In this document: piece after piece, positions 2 through 10,500 of the stretch
Position numbering within the stretch: position 1 is the first letter of the stretch
Layout: each line of letters opens with the position of its first letter
Source: an uncultured Lentisphaerota bacterium
GTDB lineage: Bacteria; Verrucomicrobiota; Kiritimatiellia; CAIQIC01
Direction: 5' to 3'
Length of the DNA: 64,000 nucleotides
Assembly (NCBI GenBank): GCA_903889245.1
Contig: CAISWQ010000038.1
Coordinates: 68,763-132,762 of the forward strand
The notes under the pieces: model-generated
The model's input: only the letters and a program-made list of their open reading frames with translations
What the model was told of the DNA's origin: nothing
Database searches by the model: none
Program-made: the position numbers and the translations under genes

Positions 2-1420
2 ATCACCGATGATCTGGTCGCGCTGGCCGGGACGCTGCGGCAGGCCGTACACGAGGTGTCGCCGGAGACGCGGCTGGGGCACATGCATGCCGGCGCGGTG
101 ATTCACGATGTGGCCCGCGTGGCGCGGGCCTTGGCGGGCGACAAGCGTCCGTTTGTGCGGCCGCAAATCCAGCTCTACCGCGAAGAGATTCCGCTCACGG
201 ACTATCCGGGTCGCTTCTGGGAATTGGATGCGTGGCAGGCGCGCCTGCCGGCGGCCTTCGAGCTTTTCCCGGAATGCGAGAACTATCCCTACGATCCGGC
301 TCTCAAGTCGCCGGTGGCGGCCTTTGCCCATCATGCCTATATTTTATCCGTCGGTGAACCGCGGGTGGCCTTGAGTCTGAATGCCGCTTTCGGGGGAAAG
401 GTGCCCGCGTCCGAGTCGCGTGCGTTGGTCGACTACTTTGCGGAACGTCGTGGTCAGTTGCAGGCCGTCTCGAAATGGTTGCAAGGTGCCACGCAGCCGG
501 CGGGCGTAGCCGTCTGGCAGGATCACGAGCTGCTGAACCTGGGCCTCGTGCGCAGGACGCCCCTGAAGGCGCTGCAGGCACGCGGTGTGCCGCTGTGTTG
601 CGCCCGGACTCCTGATGCCGGCGCACTCCACTGGGGCGAGTCGCTGCAGTCTGTGAGCGAGGCCCACCTCGATGAAATTCTGAAACACGGCGCCTTCCTC
701 GACCTGCGCGCCTTGCAGGTGCTGCAAAGCCGCGGTCGGTTGGCGCAGCTCGGCCTGACGCTTGGGGAACGCTGTACGGCCACGGAGGTGATGCATCTGC
801 GCTACGAACGGCAGGACGGCGGGGTCGAGTTGTGGCCCTATTATTATTTCGTCGGCCGTTTGCCGGGCCGGGAGCATCTGCCGTGTCGGGTGCAGGCGCC
901 GGCGGGCAGGGCGCTCGCCACCTACCTTGATGCGCAACGGCACGCGAGCGCGCCGCATGTGTTCATCTGGACGAGCCCTGGGGGTGCACGCTTTGCGCTG
1001 CTGAATGCCTCGACCGATGCCGCGACGGGCGACTCGCTGTTGAGCCGCTGGAGTGCAGGGTGTCTGGCGCGCGCCCTTGAGTGGGTGGAGGGACGGCCTG
1101 TATTGGCGCGGGTGACGTCCGAGGGCGCCTTCCTGCTCAAGGCGTTATGGCTTGAGGCAGGCGCTGCCATCATGCTGACGCTTTGGAACTTGAGTACGGC
1201 TCCGGCTGCAGCGGCGACGCTTCGTCTGGCACCCCAGATTTCCGCGTGGCAGTGGGCGCGCATAGGAAGTGCTGGCCGTTTGCAACCGGTGACGATCCGT
1301 TCCGTGAATGGTGAACCTTGCCTCGTCTTGGAGCGGCCCATGGCTTCGCTGGAGTGCTGCTTCTTGGTGGCACGACGGGCCGCTGATCTGCCGGTAGATA
1401 AGGATCAAACTGTGCCATGA
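2..1420 (+). CDS. hypothetical protein; 5' end probably upstream of window
   Basis: The reading frame is open from position 2 and runs through ORF 56..1420. Codon usage is GC-rich. I recognise no signature motifs. Confidence 0.5.
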   Translation: MTDDLVALAGTLRQAVHEVSPETRLGHMHAGAVIHDVARVARALAGDKRPFVRPQIQLYREEIPLTDYPGRFWELDAWQARLPAAFELFPECENYPYDPALKSPVAAFAHHAYILSVGEPRVALSLNAAFGGKVPASESRALVDYFAERRGQLQAVSKWLQGATQPAGVAVWQDHELLNLGLVRRTPLKALQARGVPLCCARTPDAGALHWGESLQSVSEAHLDEILKHGAFLDLRALQVLQSRGRLAQLGLTLGERCTATEVMHLRYERQDGGVELWPYYYFVGRLPGREHLPCRVQAPAGRALATYLDAQRHASAPHVFIWTSPGGARFALLNASTDAATGDSLLSRWSAGCLARALEWVEGRPVLARVTSEGAFLLKALWLEAGAAIMLTLWNLSTAPAAAATLRLAPQISAWQWARIGSAGRLQPVTIRSVNGEPCLVLERPMASLECCFLVARRAADLPVDKDQTVP

Positions 1421-3189
1421 AACACCATCTCTATCATGCCGCCATTCTGCTGTCCGTGATGTTACGGGCGGCCGGTGCCGCCGGGACATCCTACGACCTC
1501 TATCAGCCGGCGGTGAAGCACGTCACGATCCACGAGGGCCAGCTCGCGCCGGGGCATTTCGCCTATAACCACATGGCGTCGGTGGAATGGTTCGACGGCC
1601 AGTTCCATTGCGTCTGGGGCGCGCACGCCGAAACGCATCTGGAAGGCAAGCCGGGCCAGCTCAACATCTGGGCGACGAGTCCGGATTTCGAGACGTGGAG
1701 CGCGCCGCAGCCGCTGGCGCATACGGGCGCGCATGCGCTGGCGCGCGATCCGCAGTGCGTGCAATGGCAGCCGAACCTGCTGAACTATCACGACCGCCAG
1801 CTCTGGTGCGTGTGGTCGTTCAACAGCAAGAACACCGAACTCGACGGGCTCTGGTTGAGCACGCTGGACAAAAGTTCCAAGGCTTGGAAACACCGGCGCA
1901 TCCAGCGGCGGCAGGAGGCCAACGGCGTGCCGTGTTCCATCTTCGCGAGCCAGAATCCCGTACTGCTCGCCTCCGGCCGCGTGCTCGCGCCGGTGACCCT
2001 GAACTACCGTGGCGGCAGCACCAACTCTGTCCGGCGCTGGAACGCCTGCTTCTATACCGATGATGGCGGCGCGACGTGGGCCTGCTCGAACCCGATCAGT
2101 TCCGTGGACGATGCCGAGGCGCAGTGGGAGCCGTTCTTCTATGAGCAGGCCGATGGGAAAATCCGCGCCTACATGCGCAACTTCACCAAGGGCGTCGCCT
2201 ATCCCACGCACTGGCGGCTGACGACCACCGGCACCGGCGCGGCCAAGGGCACGCCGGTCAGATTCCCGGACGACCCGGTTTATTCATTCATGGAGACGGT
2301 CAACTGCCGCCCGCAGATTTTCCGACTCGAAGGCGGCCGCTACTGCCTGCTGCAGCAGGATGCGTTCGTGAACCACCGCGACTACTCGACGCGGCTGAAT
2401 ATCGCGCTGAACTTCAGCCGCAGCGGCGCGGACGATTTCGTCGCCGGCCCGCCGGTCTCGCGGCCGGAGGTGATCAGTGCCTACCCGCAGGGCGTCGCGC
2501 ATGGCGGCAACCTCTACCTCGCCTACAGCGCCGGGCCTGGCAACGAGGCGCGCAGCATCGAGGGCGCGATCGTCACGCCCGCGCCGCGCGGCGCTGTCCA
2601 CTACGTCTGGCCGCGCTCGAAGGAACTGATCAAGATGCAGGAAGAGAAGGACGCGGCCGGCAAAAAGAAAGTCGTCCGCACCAATCCCGACGCGCGCACG
2701 GCGCTGCCGAAGATCAAGACGGTGGACCAGCGCAAGATGATCCAGTTCAGCGCGCGCGCCAGCGCCGGCGTTGACCTCGATCCGGTTGATTTCGCCGCCG
2801 GCCAGTCGCTGGCTTTTAAGTTTGAGACCAAGGTACTGCGGCTGCAGCCGGTCGGGCGGCTGGTCTTCTGCTCGCTTGGCGACCGCTTCCCGATCCGGCT
2901 GGGCATGATGGCCAACCGGCCCGACCAGCTCTATGTCTACACGCGCAACCAGTGGGAGCCGGTCTGCGCTTTCCCGATGCAGCAGTGGCACACGGTCCAG
3001 CTCACCGTGCGCGGCGCGGACTTCTCGGTGGCCGTGGATAGCCAGCCGGCAAAAACTTTTCCGAATCCGCTCGTCAACCCGACGCCGCGCCTCTATCTGG
3101 GCGACGGCTTCGAGGTGGACTATGTCTACAGCCTGTCCGGCTCCGAGTTCCTGGTGGACCTCGGCTCGCTGAGCAGCGAGGTGAAGTGA
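1417..3189 (+). CDS. secreted BNR/sialidase-like (six-bladed beta-propeller glycosidase-like) protein
   Basis: N-terminal signal peptide MKHHLYHAAILLSVMLRAAGAAG. There are repeated S/T-x-D-x-G-x-T/W-W Asp-box-like segments (TDDGGATWACS, FHCVWG, LWCVWS). The start overlaps the previous stop. Confidence 0.55.
   Translation: MKHHLYHAAILLSVMLRAAGAAGTSYDLYQPAVKHVTIHEGQLAPGHFAYNHMASVEWFDGQFHCVWGAHAETHLEGKPGQLNIWATSPDFETWSAPQPLAHTGAHALARDPQCVQWQPNLLNYHDRQLWCVWSFNSKNTELDGLWLSTLDKSSKAWKHRRIQRRQEANGVPCSIFASQNPVLLASGRVLAPVTLNYRGGSTNSVRRWNACFYTDDGGATWACSNPISSVDDAEAQWEPFFYEQADGKIRAYMRNFTKGVAYPTHWRLTTTGTGAAKGTPVRFPDDPVYSFMETVNCRPQIFRLEGGRYCLLQQDAFVNHRDYSTRLNIALNFSRSGADDFVAGPPVSRPEVISAYPQGVAHGGNLYLAYSAGPGNEARSIEGAIVTPAPRGAVHYVWPRSKELIKMQEEKDAAGKKKVVRTNPDARTALPKIKTVDQRKMIQFSARASAGVDLDPVDFAAGQSLAFKFETKVLRLQPVGRLVFCSLGDRFPIRLGMMANRPDQLYVYTRNQWEPVCAFPMQQWHTVQLTVRGADFSVAVDSQPAKTFPNPLVNPTPRLYLGDGFEVDYVYSLSGSEFLVDLGSLSSEVK
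1873..1891. repeat. single copy of palindrome AGTTCCAAGGCTTGGAAAC inside the CDS
   Basis: Exact 15-bp core TTCCAAGGCTTGGAA, translated KAWK in frame. Confidence 0.6.
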
Positions 3190-3199
3190 GGAGGCGATC

Positions 3200-4399
3200 A
3201 TGAAACGCGAACTGCAACGACGTGAAGTGCTGAAAGCGGCGCTCGCCGCCGGGCTCGGCAGCGTGGCCGCACTGCCCGCGCGCGCCGAAACTCCGGCGCG
3301 CGTGGCGACCGGCGGCGCGGTACCGGTGGTTCACGCGACCGACCTGTTCCATCCGCATGGCGACCCGGATGATCACTTTGATCTCGCCTGCGCCTATGCG
3401 CTCGCGCAGCGCGGGCGGTTCGATTTGCGCGGCTTGGTCATCGACTATCCGCCGGACTTCCGCGAGGGCGATCCGGCCGTGGTCGCCGTGGCGCAGATGA
3501 ACTGGCTGACCGTACGGTCCGTGCCCGTCTCCATCGGGACGCCGCGCCGGCTGGCGCATCGCAAGGACGCGCTCGCCGGCGCGCCGGCGCAGGAGTTGGC
3601 GGCGGTCGAGTTCATCCTTGGCCAGTTGCGCGCGGCTGACCGGCCCGTGGCGGTGGTGTGCGTGGGTTCCGCGGCGGATGTCATCGCCGCCGCGTTGCGC
3701 GAGCCGCGCCTGTTCAAGGAGAAATGCAGTGGCGTCTATCTGAACAGCGGCTCGGCGCACGATAATCCAAGCAAGCCCGCGCAACTGGAGTTCAACGTCC
3801 GCCTCGATCCCGCCGCCTACGCGGCGATGTTCGACCTGCCGTGTCCGCTCTACTGGTTCCCCTGCTGGCATACGACCGAGGTCCGGCAGAGCGGCGAGTC
3901 GGGCAGCTTCTACTGGCTGCCGCACCGCGAGACGCTCGCGAAGGCATCGCCGGGGCTCGCGCATTTTTTCACCCACATGTTCGAGAAATCCACGAACCCC
4001 AAGTGGCTGCGCGCGATGAAAACGCCGCCCAAGGCGGAGACTTGGCGGAAAATTCTGGAAGGCAAACGCGGCATGTGGTCCACCGCCAGTCAGTTCGTCG
4101 CGGCCGGCCTGACCGTCACACACGATGGCAACCTTGTCCCGGCAGCCGGGGCTGGCGACGCCGCCGTCTTCAAGATGCAGGCGGTGGAAGTCACCTGCGC
4201 CGATGATGGCCGCACGACGTGGCGACCGGCGGACAAGGACACCGGCCGCTGGATGCTGCGCGTCACCGACGTGGAAAAATATCCGGCCGCAATGACGCGG
4301 GCCGTGGCCGAGCTGTTCAGCACGCTCAACGGTGGGCCGGCGGATACACCTGGCCCGCGTCGGGAGAGGGGTGTGGGGCTTTCTTCTAAACGACTTTAG
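3200..4399 (+). CDS. Tat-signal secreted hypothetical protein (possibly a nucleoside-hydrolase-like fold)
   Basis: Twin-arginine motif RREVLKAALAAGLG. DPDDHFDLA resembles the DxDxxxDD motif of nucleoside hydrolases; this resemblance is weak. Confidence 0.55.
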   Translation: MKRELQRREVLKAALAAGLGSVAALPARAETPARVATGGAVPVVHATDLFHPHGDPDDHFDLACAYALAQRGRFDLRGLVIDYPPDFREGDPAVVAVAQMNWLTVRSVPVSIGTPRRLAHRKDALAGAPAQELAAVEFILGQLRAADRPVAVVCVGSAADVIAAALREPRLFKEKCSGVYLNSGSAHDNPSKPAQLEFNVRLDPAAYAAMFDLPCPLYWFPCWHTTEVRQSGESGSFYWLPHRETLAKASPGLAHFFTHMFEKSTNPKWLRAMKTPPKAETWRKILEGKRGMWSTASQFVAAGLTVTHDGNLVPAAGAGDAAVFKMQAVEVTCADDGRTTWRPADKDTGRWMLRVTDVEKYPAAMTRAVAELFSTLNGGPADTPGPRRERGVGLSSKRL

Positions 4400-4437
4400 G
4401 ATTGCGTTTGGTAGAACTAAATGCTGTCATATGGCCT

Positions 4438-5592
4438 ATGAAAACACGGCATTATTGGATGGAATTGATTGAGAAAACCTGGCGGGAGCGTTCCGTCATC
4501 TGGTTGGCTGGTGTGCGCCGGGTTGGCAAAACCTGCCTGTGCCGGTCGTTGTCCGATGTGGACTATTTCGACTGCGAGTTACCACGTGTGCGTCGGGAAC
4601 TGGCGGATCCGGAGGCCTTCCTGCGCGGGTCGCGGGGGAAACGGGTAGTACTCGACGAGATTCATCGGCTGGCCAATCCCGCGGAGTTGCTCAAGATCGC
4701 AGCGGATCATTTCCCTCAAATCCGCGTCTTGGCCACGGGTTCCTCGACGCTGGGTGCCTCGGCCAAATTCAAGGACACATTGACAGGGCGCAAGCGCGAT
4801 CTGCGTCTCACGCCCATGACGGTGAGCGATTTGGATGATTTCGGCCGGCCCGACCAGCGCCACCGGTTGTTGCGGGGTGGGCTGCCGCCGTTTTTTCTGG
4901 CCGACGAATTGCCGGAAAAAGATTTCCAGGAGTGGATGGATGCCTACTGGGCCAAGGATATTCAGGAGCTGTTCCGGCTGGAGCGGCGCAGTTCCTTTCA
5001 AAAATTCTTTGAGTTACTCATGGCCCAAAGCGGCGGCATTTTTGAGGCAACACGGTTCGCCACCCCGTGCGAGGTCAGCCGCCAGACCATCACCAACTAT
5101 CTCGCCGTGTTGGAGGCCACCTTTGTCGTGCATGTCCTGCGGCCCTTCAGCACCCGGCGGGCGACAGAAATAGTGGCCGCGCCCAAGGTCTATGGTTTCG
5201 ACAGCGGCTTTGTCTGTTATCACCGTGGCTGGCATAGCCTGCGCAGCGATGATCTGGGCCCGCTTTGGGAGCATTTTGTCCTCAACGAAATCCAGGCCCG
5301 GCTACCCGGCCAGCCGGTGCTCTACTGGCGCGACAAAAGCCTGCACGAGGTGGATTTTGTCCTGCAACGGCGCGGCGCAGCGCCTTTGGCCATCGAATGC
5401 AAATGGAGCGCAGACGGCTTTGACCCGACGAACCTGCTGGCTTTCCGCCATCAATATCCGCAGGGCCGAAATTTTGTCGTGTGCAACGATGTGGAACGGA
5501 TCAGTCGCCGGCAGCACCGTAACATCGAGGTGGAATTTGTGAATCTACCCCAGCTTGTTGACCGGCTGACAGAGGGAGCAAAACGACTATGA
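4438..5592 (+). CDS. AAA+ ATPase, AAA_14/DUF4143 family
   Basis: Walker A GVRRVGKT and Walker B VVLDEIH, plus a C-terminal DUF4143-like region (YLAVLEATFVVHVLRPF...GFDSGF). GC is visibly lower than in the neighbouring genes. The start could instead be 4402. Confidence 0.75.
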   Translation: MKTRHYWMELIEKTWRERSVIWLAGVRRVGKTCLCRSLSDVDYFDCELPRVRRELADPEAFLRGSRGKRVVLDEIHRLANPAELLKIAADHFPQIRVLATGSSTLGASAKFKDTLTGRKRDLRLTPMTVSDLDDFGRPDQRHRLLRGGLPPFFLADELPEKDFQEWMDAYWAKDIQELFRLERRSSFQKFFELLMAQSGGIFEATRFATPCEVSRQTITNYLAVLEATFVVHVLRPFSTRRATEIVAAPKVYGFDSGFVCYHRGWHSLRSDDLGPLWEHFVLNEIQARLPGQPVLYWRDKSLHEVDFVLQRRGAAPLAIECKWSADGFDPTNLLAFRHQYPQGRNFVVCNDVERISRRQHRNIEVEFVNLPQLVDRLTEGAKRL

Positions 5593-6350
5593 GCAAAACA
5601 AAATCCAAACTCAAACAGGGCCGGAGTGTGCTGGGCGGATGGACGCTGACGGGGCATCCGGCGGTCGCCGAGATCATGGCGGCCGAGGGCTTCGACTTCA
5701 TCGGCGTGGACATGGAGCACACCGCGACGGACGTCGAGGGCTTCTATCACAACGTGCTCGCGGCGAAGAGCACCGACTGCGACGTGCTCGCGCGCCTGCC
5801 CGCGTGCGATCCGGTGCTCGCGAAGCAGGTGCTCGATATGGGCGCGGCGGGCATCATCGTGCCCTCGGTGAATTCGCCGGAGGAGGCCGCGCTCTCCGTG
5901 GCGATGGCGAAGTTCCCGCCCGAGGGTATCCGCGGCGCCTCGCTCTGCCGCGCGACAGGCTTCGGCAAAAACTTCGCCGGCTACTTCGCGCAGCACAACC
6001 GCGAGGTGCTCGTCGTCGTGATGCTGGAGCACATCAAGGCCGTGGAGCAGGCCGACGCGATCCTCGCGACGCCGGGACTCGACGCCGCGTTCATCGGCCC
6101 CTATGATCTCTCGGCCTCGATGAACCTGGCCGGTCAGCTCGACCATCCCGCGGTACAGGAGGCGCAGCAGAAAATTCTCGCCGCGTGCCGCCGCCACGGC
6201 GTCGCGCCCGGCGTCCACGTGGTGCCGCTCGATGCGGGCGAGGTTCACCGCCGCCTCACCGAAGGCTTCCGGTTCATCGCCTGCGGGCTCGACACGGGTT
6301 TCATCCAGGCCGGCTGCCGGCAGATGCTCAAGGCACGGGAGGTCCAATGA
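5589..6350 (+). CDS. HpcH/HpaI-family aldolase (2-keto-3-deoxy-sugar-acid aldolase, plausibly 2-keto-3-deoxy-L-rhamnonate aldolase)
   Basis: Family-typical GWTLTGHPAVAEIMAAEGFDFIGVDMEH and a GIRGAS segment. The gene lies in a locus with GH78 rhamnosidases. Confidence 0.8.
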   Translation: MSKTKSKLKQGRSVLGGWTLTGHPAVAEIMAAEGFDFIGVDMEHTATDVEGFYHNVLAAKSTDCDVLARLPACDPVLAKQVLDMGAAGIIVPSVNSPEEAALSVAMAKFPPEGIRGASLCRATGFGKNFAGYFAQHNREVLVVVMLEHIKAVEQADAILATPGLDAAFIGPYDLSASMNLAGQLDHPAVQEAQQKILAACRRHGVAPGVHVVPLDAGEVHRRLTEGFRFIACGLDTGFIQAGCRQMLKAREVQ

Positions 6351-7327
6351 GCGCGCGCGAAATCATTTTGATTGATGAGGGTGTTTACACAAAAGGCGAG
6401 TCGGTCTTCCGCGCTGCCACCGATGTGGACTGCGTGCAGACGCCAGCCGCCGAGGCCGCGCTGGCCGCGGCGGTGCTGGAGCAGGGCACGCGCGCGGTGA
6501 TCGTGGGAACGAAGCCCTATACCGGTCCGCTCTACGAGGCGCTGGGGAAAAAAGCCAGCACGCTGATTGCGCGCTTCGGGGTGGGGCACGATAGCATCAA
6601 CAAAGACCTCGCGCGCCGCCATGGCATTCTCGTCACCAACACACCCGGCGTGCTCGATGTGAGTGTGGCGGAACACACGGTCGGCCTGTTGTGCAGCCTC
6701 GCGCGGCATATTGCGGCGACGCACGCGGACATGCGCGACGGGAAGTTCGCGCCCCAGACGGGGCTGGAACTGCACGGCAAGACGCTCGGCATCCTCGGCT
6801 TCGGCAACATCGGCCGGCGGGTCGCCGCCAGCGCGCACTTCGGGCTCGGTATGGAGGTGATCGCGTGCGACCAGGTCGCCGCGCCCGCCAACCTCGCGGC
6901 GCTCGGCGTTGCGCGCTACACGAACGACGCCGAGGAATGCTTCCGCCAGTCCGACGCCATCAGCATCCACCTGCCCGCGCTGGCCAGCACGCAGAAGTTC
7001 ATCAACGCCGCACGGCTCGCGTGGCTCAAACCCACGGCGCTGCTGATCAACACCGCGCGCGGTGCGGTGCTTGATGAAGTTGCGCTCTTCGAGGCGCTCG
7101 CCGCCGGCCGCCTCGCCGGCGCGGCGCTCGACGTGTTTGAGCGTGAGCCCTACGTGCCTGCGCAACCCGACAAAGATCTGCGTACGCTCGCCAACGTCGT
7201 GCTCACGCCGCACATCGGCTCGAACACGCGCGAGGCCAACGTCCGCATGGCGGAGGGCGCGCTGGAGAACGTCCGCCACTTCCTCGCCGGCCGCCTTGAC
7301 CTGCTCAACCGCGTAGCCGGCGGCTGA
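6347..7327 (+). CDS. D-isomer-specific 2-hydroxyacid dehydrogenase, NAD-binding
   Basis: GxGxxG motif LGILGFGNIGRRV, LINTARGAVLDE and a catalytic region PHIGSNTREA. There is an ATGA start/stop overlap with the upstream gene. Confidence 0.85.
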   Translation: MSAREIILIDEGVYTKGESVFRAATDVDCVQTPAAEAALAAAVLEQGTRAVIVGTKPYTGPLYEALGKKASTLIARFGVGHDSINKDLARRHGILVTNTPGVLDVSVAEHTVGLLCSLARHIAATHADMRDGKFAPQTGLELHGKTLGILGFGNIGRRVAASAHFGLGMEVIACDQVAAPANLAALGVARYTNDAEECFRQSDAISIHLPALASTQKFINAARLAWLKPTALLINTARGAVLDEVALFEALAAGRLAGAALDVFEREPYVPAQPDKDLRTLANVVLTPHIGSNTREANVRMAEGALENVRHFLAGRLDLLNRVAGG

Positions 7328-7329
7328 AG

Positions 7330-7473
7330 TTTTCCAGGGATTGGAAAACACAACGCCGGTTTTTCCAGGGATGGGAAGATTTCGCGCCCAGCTTTTCCAA
7401 GCCTTGGAAACTCTCGCTGAATTTTTCCCGAGGCCTGGAAAAAGCCGCCGTGAATTTTCCGGGCCTTGGAAAA
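7330..7473. repeat. array of 5 palindromic units (TTTTCCARGNNTGGAAAA-like) at 30-32 bp period
   Basis: The units start at about 7330, 7362, 7393, 7423 and 7455. Copies 3 and 5 are near-perfect; copies 2 and 4 are degenerate. Confidence 0.9.
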
Positions 7474-7507
7474 CCCAGTTGCACACCTCTTGAGGTGTGC
7501 AACTGGG
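7474..7507. promoter_or_regulatory. perfect inverted repeat CCCAGTTGCACACCTC-TT-GAGGTGTGCAACTGGG (15-16 bp stem)
   Basis: The two arms are exact reverse complements. The structure lies between the palindrome array and the kinase start. No T-tract follows. Confidence 0.6.
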
Positions 7508-7558
7508 CGGCGGCAGATGGCGGTTGCGCTTTGGGGCGGCAGCGGCTAGCGTGCGCGC

Positions 7559-10500
7559 GTGATGAAATCGTGGCGTCAAGTGAGGCTGGGGGCCGGCCTC
7601 GCGCTGCTGCTGGCCGGCGGCGTGGCCGGGGCCGCGCCGCAGGACCGGCTTGCCGATCGTTACTCGTGGCGGCTCTGGGGCCGCGAGCAGGATTTCCCCG
7701 ATACGCGGATCCGCGCGCTGGATTTCGATGAGCAGGGACGGCTGTGGTTGGCCACGCCACAGGGCATGGCGCGGTTCGATGGCGTGCGTTTCAATGTCGT
7801 CACCAACCTGCCGCCGGGCATTGCGCCGGTGCGCGGCTGGCTGCCGGACGCGGGCGGGACGCCGTGGGTCTTTGGCGTCGGCGGCGTAGCGCACCTGACG
7901 CGGACGGGCTGGCAGAAGGTGGGCGCCCAAGCGGTGGGGCCGGTGCATGTGCAGGCGGTATTCACGAATGCCACCGGTGGACTGTGGTTGGTTGGCGAGA
8001 AGACGCTGTGGTTTTATCAACACGGCAAACTGACGCGGGTGGAGTGGCCGCCCGGCATGGGTGAGGACGCCCGGATCACGAGCGCCGCCCTGGATGCCGG
8101 GCAGGTCGTCTGGCTGGTGGTGGAGGGCCGGCTGCTGGCGTTTCATGAAGACCACTGGCTGTCCGAGGAGGAGGCGCGCATAGGTCACTGGGAACATGTC
8201 GCGCTGGTGCGTGCGGAGGATCATGGCACGCTGGTGGTGGTGGAACGCGAGGGCCTGCATGTCCGGCGCGGGGGACGCTGGCGAAACCTACCGCTGCCGC
8301 CGCCGGCGGTGGCCGGCGATGCGGCTTTGCTGCGGCCGACGGCGGTGCTGGAGGAAGCCAACGGCAACAACATCTGGTTGGGAACGGCCCACGCGCTCTA
8401 TCGCTGGTCGCGTGGCACGTGGTTGAACCTGACGGATAACGACATCGGTGTGCCGCTGGCCGTGAATGTGCTCGAGCTGGATCGTTACGGCGATGTCTGG
8501 GCGGGGCTGGACAGCGGGTTGCTGTGTTTGCATCGCCGGGCGGTGACGATGCTGCGGACGGGTGAGGCCGCGCAGGACGAACCGATCACGTGTCTGTTTG
8601 CGCTGGCCGCGGGGCAGGTCTGGGCCGGCATCAAGGAGCGTGGCTTGTGGGTGGTCCGGCGCAACGGGTTGGAGCCGCTGGAACTGCCGCTGAAAAGCAA
8701 CCAGACCGTCACGGCGGTGGCGCCGGGCGAGGGTGGCTGGTGGGTGGGTACGCATGGCGATGGCCTGTTCTGGATGACGACCACGCAACTGGTGCCCGTC
8801 GCGTCCACCACCGCTCCCGGATCGCAGACGATCACCGCTTTGCAACGAACACGCGACGGGCGGCTCTGGGTGGGGACGTGGGCAGGATTGTATTGGTTGC
8901 CAGCAGCGGCGCCGGGCACCGGGCAACAGCCGGAGTTGCGGGGTGTCCCCGGTGGCCAGAAGTGGAATGTAACCGCGCTGGCCGTCGAGGGGACGGGCAC
9001 CTTGTGGGTGGCCACGGCGGGGCAGGGACCTTCGCGCCTGGAGCCAGATGGCACCCTGCATTATTTCGGCGAGCGCGATGGCGTCCCCCCCACGGCGCTA
9101 CTTTGCCTGCAGGCCGATCGCGATGGCCGGTTGTGGGCCGGTTGCGCCCGCGGGCTGATCCGGTGGGATGGCCAGCGCTGGCAGGCCTGTGATCTGCGCA
9201 AGGATTTCATCGTGCGCCATCTCTATCATGATGATAGAGGCCGGCTGTGGTGCGGCACGGCACAGGGGCTGCACTGTCTGCGGCCCGACGCGGTCAGGGA
9301 TGCCCTCGCGCAGCGCTCGGTTTCCGGTCGTTATTTTCGCATGGGCGCGGCGGATGGTCTGCCCGCCGCCGAGTGTGTCGCGCAGGTCAGCCAGGCGGTC
9401 ACGAGCGCCGGCAACGAACTCTTCCTGGCCACCCCCGATGGGGTGGCGCGGCTTTCGCTCAACATCGCGCAGACCGGCCGCCGGCCGCAGGCAATGGACA
9501 TCGAGACCGTGAGCGCCGTCGGCCGGCTGCTCTGGAACCGGCTCGGGTGCGTGCCGGGCGAGCCGCTGCCCGGCACGCCGCTCCTCAAGCTGCCGCCGGG
9601 CAGCGAGCCGGTCACCTTTGAGTACGCGATGCCGGAACTGTTCTGGCCGGACCGCATCCGCTATGACTACCAGTGGAAACTGGAGGGCTTGAACGAGGCC
9701 TGGTCGCCCGCCACCACGGAGCCGCGGGTGACCTTCGAGCAACTGCCCCCGGGCGACTACAGCTTCCGGGTGCGCGGCCGGCGCGAGGGCGACTGGTGCG
9801 AGGTGGCGCAGCCGGTGCGTTTGCGCGTGCTGCCGTTCTTCTGGCAGGCCTTGTGGTTCCGCGCGGTCGTCGCCGCGCTGGCGCTGGTCACGACGGTGCT
9901 GGTGGCGTGGCGGTTGCTGCGCGCCCGGTATCGCCGGCGCTTGCTGCGCGCCCAGCAGGCGCAGGCGTTGGCGCAGGAGCGCACGCGCATCGCGCAGGAT
10001 CTGCACGACGAGATGGGCGCGGGCCTCACAGAAATCAGCCTGCTGGGCGATCTGGCCACGACGGAAGCGCACGGCCCCACGCGCACCGAGAACATTTCGT
10101 TGCTGACCCAGCGCGCCCGCGCGCTGGTGACCAAGCTCGACGAGATCGTCTGGGCCGTCAACCCGCGCCACGACCGGCTCGAAGCGGTGAGTGATTTTTT
10201 TGGCAGCTATGCGCAGCAGTTCCTGCGGCCCGCCGGCATCGCGTGCGCGCTGGAGGTGGCCGAGGCCCTGCCGGAACTGCCGCTGGAGGCGCGGGTACGG
10301 CATCAACTCTTCCTGGCCTTCAAGGAGGCGCTGACCAACTTGGTCCGCCATTCCGGCGCGACGCAGGCGCGGTTGCGGATCGCGGTCGAGGCCGGCGGGC
10401 TGACGATCAGCGTGAGCGACAACGGGCGCGGCCTGAAGGCGGAGGGCGCGGCCGGCCTGCATGATGGGTTGCGCAGCATGTGCGCGCGCCTGGAAAAACT

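Follow-up and report, generated by a model that had tools for sequence, protein, structure and literature searches.

The stretch of DNA analysed here (the window, 64 kb) carries a lone gene for a predicted AAA+ ATPase-nuclease between two host genes, one encoding a nucleoside-hydrolase-like protein and the other an aldolase of the HpcH/HpaI family (Table 1). NCBIfam GarL/HpaI-like models also matched the aldolase, below their cut-off. A preliminary description had singled out the gene at 4438-5592 as a lower-GC DUF4143 AAA+ ATPase gene bracketed on the left by AT-rich sequence, and had read a short direct repeat at its edges as a target-site duplication. Pfam searches and base composition bear out the gene and its AT-rich bracket (4384-4437), but the duplication does not survive comparison with related loci.

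Table 1. Features of the locus, with positions in the window
Feature	Position	Strand	Remarks
Nucleoside-hydrolase-like gene (IU_nuc_hydro), upstream host gene	3200..4399	+	Pfam PF01156; 399 aa
GC-rich (73.6%) segment, host or hitch-hiking DNA	4331..4383	+	Not in empty sites
Conserved non-coding cassette control block	4384..4437	+	38.9% GC; ~55 nt
Half-site 1, CTAAACGAC	4386-4394		TTGCRTWTRGT-type motif
Left repeat copy, AAACGACTTT	4388..4397	+	Half-site 1 and the start of its loop; then the upstream gene's stop codon
Half-site 2, TTGCGTTTGGTAG	4402-4414		TTGCRTWTRGT-type motif
Half-site 3	4415-4424		TTGCRTWTRGT-type motif
AAA+ ATPase / helical-wHTH / PD-(D/E)xK nuclease gene, PDC-S01 type	4438..5592	+	384 aa
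Walker A	4510-4533	+	Within ATPase gene
Walker B (DE)	4654-4659	+	Within ATPase gene
Putative wHTH	about 5029-5157	+	Within ATPase gene
Nuclease D306	5353-5355	+	Within ATPase gene
Nuclease E320-x-K322	5395-5403	+	Within ATPase gene
Non-conserved ORF tail and right junction zone, ACAGAGGGAGCAAAACGACT	5572..5588	+	Host or cassette DNA
Right repeat copy, AAACGACTAT	5581..5590	+	Overlaps the aldolase ATG (5589) and the ATPase TGA (5590-5592)
HpcH/HpaI-family aldolase, downstream host gene	5589..6350	+	Pfam PF03328

The open reading frame passes the Pfam gathering scores for AAA_14 (PF13173; 1.6e-19, 70.6 bits, cut-off 27) and DUF4143 (PF13635; 2.1e-33, 115.8 bits, cut-off 28.1), and its protein is matched by the PADLOC PDC-S01 profile HMMs PDLC04790 (2.1e-54) and PDLC04789 (1.4e-51, residues 7-349). 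DUF4143 is included in the list of the PD-(D/E)XK superfamily (PMC3424549). PDC-S01, an ATPase fused to a PD-(D/E)XK domain, is very widespread and reported to be among the commonest putative defence genes in prokaryotes, but it has not been validated, validation being pending for most PDC systems (PMC12988326). Because homologues begin with MKTRHFWLELI, the ATG at 4438 is favoured, not the start that the gene caller placed at 4459. In 49 aligned homologues, residues G25, K31, T32, D73, E74, E278, E284, D306, E320, and K322 are invariant or nearly so, and in the window protein Walker A, Walker B, and the D...ExK nuclease motif are all intact. The C-termini of 120 homologues place the last residues of the conserved core at ...QLVDRL (5571), beyond which they carry tails of 0-15 aa that are mutually unrelated. 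An AlphaFold2 model of the protein (pLDDT 76, with a low-confidence middle part at 43-66) gave Foldseek matches to AAA+ ATPases that handle DNA and to a nuclease (RFC, RuvB, Cdc6/Orc1, MuB, 2qen, and the nuclease Card1), as well as to McrBC (7vsr); no sequence relative of the protein was found in the PDB. Judged by its domains and by the candidate status of its family, the protein is most likely an ATP-driven DNA-binding nuclease acting against invading DNA. The sub-clade to which it belongs retains about 70% amino acid identity across phyla and numbers over 7,900 cluster representatives (E<1e-30). Among plasmid and phage sequences the only relatives were at 31% identity or less, and a 67% relative occurred in two of 2.9 million viral contigs.

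The composition of the gene (58.7% GC, GC3 0.70) departs from that of the genes beside it (65-69% GC, GC3 0.74-0.88; flanks about 67.7%), and over 4384-5580 the GC content is 58.1%, with 67.8% and 67.7% in the flanks. A windowed calculation agreed that the gene is lower in GC than its neighbours, but placed it only at the 10th percentile among 1155-bp windows of the 64-kb stretch. The region from 33.9 to 40 kb is even lower in GC than the ATPase gene. Among about 80 loci, the window gene shows the largest GC deficit with respect to its host; because the GC content of the ATPase gene follows that of the host in most other genomes, composition alone is weak evidence.

Relatives in which the site is empty speak more directly to the origin of the gene. 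Two MAGs, L003 and L013, whose flanking proteins are 75-87% identical to those of the window, keep the order BNR, hydrolase, aldolase, dehydrogenase and have no ATPase gene between hydrolase and aldolase. Closer relatives of the window genome were not found, with no protein above 87% identity to the hydrolase among 5.8 billion. The nearest homologues of the ATPase (84% aa) sit at another locus, beside a URO-D gene. Together with the deviating composition, these observations uphold the earlier proposal that the DNA was inserted. The form proposed for the ancestral site fared less well: the empty sites read ...TCAACGAAATAG CTTGAAAGGAATCCTT ATGAAC, with a 16-nt spacer, no ATGA overlap, and no AAACGACT, and neither the predicted junction ...TTCTTCTAAACGACTATGAGC... 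nor the corresponding ancestral ...AAACGACTATGAGC was seen in L003 or L013.

Similarity of the hydrolase gene to L003 and L013 ends after GAGCTGTTC, at about position 4320, and similarity to the empty sites starts again at the aldolase ATG. The final 22 codons of the hydrolase (4331-4396) form an atypical extension. Among the 79 homologues listed, those bearing the GRWM motif mostly end 28-36 aa past it (the norm for the family being about 29 aa), whereas the window protein continues for 51 aa; its KRL* end falls within this abnormal extension, and its TAG stop codon (4397-4399) lies within the control block of the cassette. The GC-rich segment that precedes the block holds a weak terminator-like hairpin (4354-4377) followed by GCTTTCTTCT and has no similarity to the DNA upstream of the closest cassettes (L150, L070), to which blastn similarity of the window starts at 4384. 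On the right, the zone between the conserved core and the aldolase start contains the likely ribosome-binding site of the aldolase, GAGGGAG. The left boundary of the inserted DNA lies between 4331 and 4384 and the right boundary between 5572 and 5588.

The same comparison could be read in the opposite direction, with the ATPase gene ancestral at this site and precisely deleted in the L003/L013 lineage, its GC content reflecting constraints on the gene itself and the repeat being coincidental. That only two relatives are empty, and these possibly sister lineages, is in keeping with such a history, as is the general tendency of ATPase GC to follow the host. We nevertheless consider it very unlikely, given that cassettes demonstrably move among contexts that have nothing in common (see below), that the GC deficit in the window is the largest of the loci compared, that the closest homologues sit elsewhere, and that the hydrolase reading frame runs into the cassette and so has a derived, atypical C-terminus. 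As the empty-site relatives share only about 85% protein identity with the window, these arguments against deletion are indirect.

Directly upstream of the ATPase gene lies a block of non-coding DNA that is kept upstream of its homologues, as two alignments with 73 and 64 distinct loci show. When the block was made into an nhmmer profile, the profile matched immediately before 82 ATPase starts and at no other place in the window. Its half-sites repeat in alternating orientation and the block is palindromic; in relatives, half-site 1 reads CYAAACGCC. The arrangement resembles a promoter, with TTGCGT (4402-4407), a 17-nt spacer, and TGC then TGTCAT (4425-4430), 7 nt before the ATG, corresponding to a general layout TTGCRT-17 nt-TGn-nAnnnT that ends 7-8 nt before the start codon. 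The window hexamer TGTCAT lacks the A usual at position 2 of a -10 element. Because simple sigma-70 consensus scans did not flag the block, the promoter is a putative one. There is no Shine-Dalgarno sequence before the ATG, and we infer from this arrangement that the transcript is probably leaderless and that the protein's own putative winged-helix domain may auto-repress its mRNA.

Pair counts across the block are compatible with either an RNA hairpin or a DNA operator. The arms are 61-71% complementary by Watson-Crick pairing, and G-U pairs outnumber A-C pairs only for the pairing of half-sites 2 and 3 (83 vs 21), an excess that base composition can explain. Rfam covariance models gave no relevant match over 4250-5750 at E<=10. 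When operator and protein columns were compared by mutual information, the top columns were scattered and none lay in the putative wHTH, nor did operator type covary with the residues of that domain. A fifth half-site was sought downstream of the genes, where the best matches were no better than those within the gene (mean of 2.80 mismatches, against 2.90), in a weak comparison in which half-site 1 performed poorly as positive control. No description of the block was found in the literature searched.

The repeat that had suggested a target-site duplication is real as a sequence match. AAACGACT occurs in the 64-kb window only at 4388 and 5581, spaced by 1193 nt, and over AAACGACT(T/A)T the copies agree at nine of ten positions. 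As the preliminary description had it, the upstream gene ends in TCTAAACGACTTTAG and the ATPase gene in GCAAAACGACTATGA, both encoding KRL*, the aldolase ATG overlaps the ATPase TGA, and ATGA overlaps are common in the window (1417, 6347, 10585, 26289, 31440). The expectation by chance varies with the freedom allowed in placing the repeat: an 8-nt word is shared by 20% of random 80-nt zone pairs at a spacing of 1193 nt and by 1.4% of 24-nt zone pairs, and in a fixed register the probability is about 3e-5.

Duplication of about 10 bp of target is not supported, given where the left copy lies and how rarely cassettes of the family have short edge repeats. The block conserved in 64 loci contains the left copy, at which the closest cassettes have TTCCAAACGCCTTCAGACTTGCG and CTCTAAACGCCTTTCCGCTTGCG and the window has TTCTAAACGACTTTAGGATTGCG, and the right copy lies in the non-conserved tail. 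Edge matches of at least 8 nt were present in 3 of 69 cassettes compared with 2.8% of mismatched left-edge/right-edge pairs, so that short edge repeats are not enriched in the family. It is accordingly highly improbable that the site ...AAACGACT|ATGAGC received a small transposon-like element with duplication of 8-10 bp of target. Such an event would account for an 8-mer confined to the two edges and placed in matching register ahead of each stop codon; the frequent ATGA overlaps of this genome would suit it, and the 3' ends of the hydrolase genes in L003 and L013 (TCAACGAAATAG, TCAAAGCAGTAG) are loosely like TCTAAACGACTTTAG. Against it stand not only the left copy, which belongs to the cassette, and the background rate of edge matches, but also the 16-nt spacer of the empty sites, which contains no such junction, and the lack of transposition machinery: the ATPase gene is the only gene of the element (by Pfam), and no inverted pair was found between its left end (4331-4440) and right end (5560-5600), in line with the earlier remark that transposase and terminal inverted repeats are absent.

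An alternative use for the same 8 nt would be as microhomology in a single crossover between half-site 1, on a cassette copy in circular or looped form, and a chance AAACGACT before the aldolase ATG. The topology fits, as one copy is the left end of the cassette and the other adjoins host sequence, and the same topology with long homology would explain the 3'-end duplications at other loci described below. This route is unlikely for the window, however, since about 3% of cassette edge pairs match over 8 nt by chance, two short contigs that were checked showed no circular form, and the hydrolase would need a native 22-aa extension that is atypical of its family. The AAACGACT match is a coincidence or, at most, the microhomology of such a crossover, a role that the 8-mer may have had.

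Related loci show how cassettes of this kind are distributed. In pairs such as L092/L093, L110/L142, L110/L147, L101/L121, L126/L149, and L105/L120, DNA identity of 90-96% is confined to a stretch that starts at about -45 to -95 relative to the ATG and ends near the stop codon, and the flanks are unrelated. Because cassettes so nearly identical have unrelated flanks, the cassette appears to be a discrete mobile unit without a recombinase gene of its own. Homologues of the ATPase had been suggested as a guide to a mobile-element context, but no transposase or integrase was found in the ATPase (Pfam) or among the neighbour genes of related loci, and no tyrosine or serine recombinase in the window region or at those loci. 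At about 16 independent loci, direct duplications of 50-175 nt of the adjacent gene's end surround the cassette (for example, 83-91 nt in L150, 146 nt in L117, and 175 nt in L093). These long repeats look like att sites, with no enzyme present to act on them.

Differences between repeat copies fall mostly at codon position 3 (17, against 4 and 7 at positions 1 and 2). The sole duplication compared with empty sites in relatives is that of L093, and L156, L157, and L158, which are empty, contain a single copy of the segment. The two L093 copies are as distant from each other as from the orthologue of another genome (164-166 of 175 identical) and bear allele-specific downstream bases, and this divergence and these bases point to imported homologous DNA rather than de novo duplication. 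Two contigs of about 1.4 kb with homologues, considered as possible free circles, have host flanks and no terminal overlap. The main text of a preprint on embedding (10.1101/2024.01.29.577857) names neither PDC-S01 nor duplications. No long direct repeat was found in the flanks in the window, where the best flank-to-flank local alignment (9) lies within the null range, so that the mechanism of the family is applied to the window only by analogy.

Taken together, the evidence makes it likely that the window holds a horizontally acquired single-gene cassette of the PDC-S01 type, equipped with its own control block and put between sugar-metabolism genes, and that target-site duplication does not account for the repeat. 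The cassette would begin near 4384 and end near 5571-5588, perhaps preceded by 53 nt of hitch-hiking DNA that starts at 4331. It would have entered a series of carbohydrate-metabolism genes arranged like an operon, at the place where the hydrolase ends and the aldolase starts, extending the hydrolase reading frame by 22 codons into the cassette. Its TTGCRTWTRGT-like half-sites would wrap a promoter-like layout driving a leaderless mRNA, under auto-repression by the winged-helix domain of the ATPase-nuclease itself. The cassette is proposed to move as a unit through the recombination and repair machinery of the cell rather than by transposition, a movement that would duplicate long stretches from the 3' end of the adjacent gene elsewhere and left no such duplication in the window. 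The left copy of the repeat would then be half-site 1, and the right copy junction or tail sequence.

A bolder extension of this scheme would make the sub-clade an autonomous, recombinase-less selfish cassette whose own ATPase-nuclease binds the half-site array and drives spread into the 3' ends of genes, by DNA breakage or by looped-out circles in which part of the neighbouring gene is included. We consider this unlikely. If it were true, the long target duplications would be its trace, with the 8-nt repeat in the window as a microhomology version, and it would offer a mechanism by which single-gene "defence" units embed in operons across phyla. On the favoured reading of a horizontally acquired cassette, the case in the window is itself routine, a foreign single-gene defence candidate in a metabolic operon with a look-alike transposon footprint explained away. 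The features of the family are of moderate interest: the sub-clade travels as a 1.2-kb unit with sharp boundaries, often between long duplications of the neighbouring gene's end, and carries a conserved palindromic control block that, to judge from its sequence, probably serves a leaderless transcript. The half-sites and the pairs of empty and filled sites are concrete, testable handles on the function and movement of PDC-S01.

Several known systems share parts of this organization. McrBC-type (Type IV) restriction employs an AAA+ NTPase acting with a PD-(D/E)xK nuclease, and the window protein likewise combines an AAA+ motor with a nuclease of that kind. At the sequence level it is unrelated to McrB and McrC, and unlike McrBC it is a single chain of 384 aa in which both predicted activities are fused and whose middle is wHTH-like. 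In phages, free-standing homing endonuclease genes (for example, seg and mob of T4) are lone nuclease genes with their own promoter among conserved genes, and they too are present or absent among relatives without inverted repeats or target duplications. For the window protein, cutting of the cognate empty site would be hypothetical; the insertion sites of the cassette differ widely between genomes, unlike those of homing endonucleases, and the window protein differs from GIY-YIG and HNH homing enzymes in its AAA+ ATPase module and its nuclease family.

Insertion with long target duplication has been described for restriction-modification and other nuclease-bearing units flanked by direct repeats of more than 30 bp, in which the 3' end of an adjacent gene is often included (Nobusato et al., 2000; Furuta, Abe and Kobayashi, 2010, PMC2853133). 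The cassette family is similar in bearing a nuclease without a transposase or integrase and in its direct repeats at about 16 loci, whereas the window copy has no long duplication and its gene is not a restriction-modification system. Finally, PDC-S01 (AAA_14 plus DUF4143, COG1373) has the same domain architecture, and the window gene is likewise single and embedded between unrelated genes. Unlike PDC-S01 at large, the tightly conserved sub-clade to which the window gene belongs has a conserved upstream block of its own.

The ATPase gene is the third of five plus-strand genes in a row, preceded by genes for a BNR-repeat protein and a nucleoside-hydrolase-like protein and followed by genes for an aldolase and a dehydrogenase (see table). 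Its low GC content, noted in the preliminary description, is real and moderate: windowed calculation gave 58.7% GC (GC3 0.70) vs 65-69% (GC3 0.74-0.88) for its neighbours, the 10th percentile among equal-sized windows of the 64-kb window. The repeat claimed at both edges, AAACGACT, was found at 4388 and 5581 only in the 64 kb, and the upstream gene ends in TCTAAACGACTTTAG and the ATPase gene in GCAAAACGACTATGA. Since composition, gene ends and two-copy 8-mer are all present, the observation as described is confirmed. The public gene call starts the ATPase at 4459 (377 aa); homologues begin MKTRHFWLELI, which supports the ATG at 4438 (384 aa). Elsewhere in the window, a segment of three genes (51-57% GC; window mean 64%) is larger and compositionally more deviant than the ATPase gene, and may be another foreign segment.

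Coordinates of features in the window and at loci in other genomes
Locus	Feature	Coordinates	Strand	Remark
Window	BNR-repeat protein	1417-3189	+	
Window	Nucleoside-hydrolase-like protein	3200-4399	+	
Window	Weak terminator-like hairpin	4354-4377		Followed by GCTTTCTTCT
Window	ATPase	4438-5592	+	AAA_14 and DUF4143 matches
Window	HpcH/HpaI aldolase	5589-6350	+	
Window	2-hydroxyacid dehydrogenase	~6347-7327	+	
Window	Low-GC segment	33941-39962	+	TSP3-repeat protein, PD40 beta-propeller protein, large alpha/beta hydrolase
L084	Solo control block	3171-3215		
L146	Solo control block	3062-3105		
L093	Three copies of one gene's 3' end	1785-1959, 3382-3556, ~3704-3749		Around a single cassette
L126	Second DUF4143 paralogue	7156-8118		
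L128	Second DUF4143 paralogue	5821-6756		
L150	URO-D 3'-end remnant	2129-2212		Downstream of ATPase
L153	URO-D 3'-end remnant	~7176-7265		Downstream of ATPase

The claim that the gene is an insertion was upheld by related genomes. A hydrolase protein scan, limited to one genome per species, returned 67 loci. Two MAGs from lakes, L003 and L013, both labelled Lentisphaerae, retain the BNR, hydrolase, aldolase and dehydrogenase genes in the same order at 75-87% protein identity, and the ATPase is absent. Their junction reads ...TCAACGAAATAG CTTGAAAGGAATCCTT ATGAACAAAAC, with 16 nt containing a ribosome-binding site between the hydrolase stop and the aldolase start; aligned to it, the window loses homology past GAGCTGTTC (~4320) and regains it at the aldolase ATG. 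The C-terminal end of the window hydrolase is abnormal: it runs 51 aa past the GRWM motif to a stop codon within the cassette control block, and carriers of this motif among the 79 hydrolase homologues listed mostly end 28-36 aa past it (...LFKEFA*). The hairpin lies within this extension, just 5' of the cassette block. The closest ATPase homologues (84% at the amino acid level) adjoin a URO-D gene, in genomes rich in BNR and PhoD, and so occupy a different locus from the window's. Across ~80 homologous loci, ATPase GC usually tracks that of the flanks, and the largest deficit is the window's. Because of the empty sites, the abnormal hydrolase end, the homologues elsewhere and this deficit, gain in the window lineage is much better supported than loss in L003 and L013. 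The gain reading falls short of airtight, as the protein database holds no closer relative of the window genome than these two.

While insertion is supported, the accompanying claims of a ~10-bp target-site duplication and a reconstructed ancestral junction, AAACGACTATGAGC, are not. Since TTCTAAACGACTTTAGGATTGCGTTTGGTAGAACTAAATGC in the window matches the nearest cassettes (TTCCAAACGCCTTCAGACTTGCG... and CTCTAAACGCCTTTCCGCTTGCG...) base for base, and blastn homology to them begins at 4384, the left repeat copy (4388-4397) is itself conserved cassette sequence, the first of several half-sites that alternate in orientation. The right copy is located downstream of the conserved protein end ...QLVDRL, where homologue tails are 0-15 aa and mutually unrelated. 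Exact left-right edge matches of at least 8 nt occur at 3/69 loci, the level of mismatched pairs (2.8%). The cassette ends have no terminal inverted repeats and a Pfam search of genes in the window region detected no transposase, both as described before; with the position of the left copy and the edge-repeat frequency, this led us to reject target-site duplication. The predicted junction differs from that of L003 and L013, which are too distant to settle the sequence of the window's ancestor. Single crossover of a circular cassette copy, at microhomology of half-site 1 with a host AAACGACT, would give the 8-mer a role, and we consider this route rather improbable.

The inserted cassette carries a non-coding block 5' of the ATG, which recurs at 73 distinct loci and again in another alignment, of 64 loci. 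The consensus, GTACCAAACG CAAnTAnnn TTGCATTTAGTAGCACTATATGCAAnnATnnTTGCnT ATG, has the invariant or near-invariant positions TTGC-T, 17 nt, TG-n-nAnnnT, 7-8 nt, ATG, and contains no Shine-Dalgarno sequence. From this we infer an extended -10 promoter producing a leaderless mRNA. A consensus promoter scan did not flag the block, and it has no match in Rfam. Half-sites read ACCAAACGCAA and TTGCGTTTGGT (variants ACTATATGCAA and TTGCATATAGT); they straddle the -35 element and the spacer, and at many loci also the start codon. Block and gene are conserved jointly across phyla, which is most economically explained if the cassette's own protein binds the block (putative autoregulation).

The window protein matches the PADLOC PDC-S01 models at 2.1e-54 and 1.4e-51. 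PDC-S01, a fusion of an ATPase and a PD-(D/E)XK domain, is among the commonest putative defence systems and is as yet without validation (PMC12988326; PMC13356809); DUF4143/COG1373 has been placed in the PD-(D/E)XK superfamily (PMC3424549). Walker A, Walker B, E278, E284, D306 and E320-x-K322 are all invariant in 49 aligned homologues. The AlphaFold2 model (pLDDT 76, weak in the middle region) matches RFC, RuvB, clamp-loader, Cdc6/Orc1 and MuB ATPases, the archaeal Walker ATPase 2qen and the nuclease Card1; the PDB holds no sequence relative of the ATPase. Its sub-clade comprises >7,900 cluster representatives at E<1e-30 and is unusually conserved, with ~70% aa identity in proteins labelled Betaproteobacteria, NC10 and Krumholzibacteria. 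The window object is most probably a horizontally acquired single-gene cassette of PDC-S01 type, a candidate defence family. L126 and L128 each have a further, distantly related DUF4143 paralogue (26-28% aa) within a few kb of a conserved-clade cassette, and DUF4143 genes therefore cluster there.

In an all-against-all DNA comparison of cassette loci, many pairs were 90-96% identical across the cassette only, in unrelated flanks far from contig ends; L092/L093, for example, are 93.8% identical from -86 to +11 (likewise L110/L142, L110/L147, L101/L121, L126/L149 and L105/L120 over the cassette). The cassette is therefore a discrete unit whose context has changed recently. Long direct repeats (50-175 nt, 78-94% identical) flank it at ~16 independent loci, and where a reading frame is assignable the repeated stretch typically corresponds to the 3'-terminal portion of the neighbouring gene, ending at its stop codon; differences between copies concentrate at codon position 3. 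Three empty sites for L093 (L156-L158) each hold the duplicated segment in single copy. Two of the three L093 copies and the orthologue in L157 are equally far from one another (164-166/175 identical), one copy has the post-stop bases of the L156 allele, and the third, a short one, agrees with the L157 allele. As the copies differ in allele-specific bases past the stop codon, they suggest two nested insertions at the same stop codon. This pattern fits a model in which the cassette would be carried along with part of an adjoining gene and integrate through a single homologous crossover. At L084 and L146 a control block without an ATPase gene precedes an intact cassette by 1.1-1.9 kb. These solo blocks may be relics of former cassettes at that position, and apparently show that cassettes also decay in place. 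Plasmids, phages and viral contigs seldom carry close relatives of the cassette; only two viral-collection contigs (L159 and L160, IMG/VR, 82 and 178 kb) carry a close (67% aa) ATPase relative. At L150 and L153, two diverged genomes, the URO-D remnant is kept as an ATG-initiated ORF of 28-29 codons (...MVRACHEFGRY*), which could reflect gene conversion from the intact copy or retention of a small peptide.

Neither the literature consulted nor Rfam describes the conserved control block, the sharp boundaries of the unit or the long duplications of gene ends. These family-level features, which rest on comparison rather than experiment, are the interesting part of the result. Restriction-modification and other nuclease genes that lack mobility genes have been described as undergoing "insertion with long target duplication" (PMC2853133). 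The window copy differs in that no long flanking duplication was found, and its insertion route is therefore inferred, whereas the pattern of the cassette family at other loci is close to that system.
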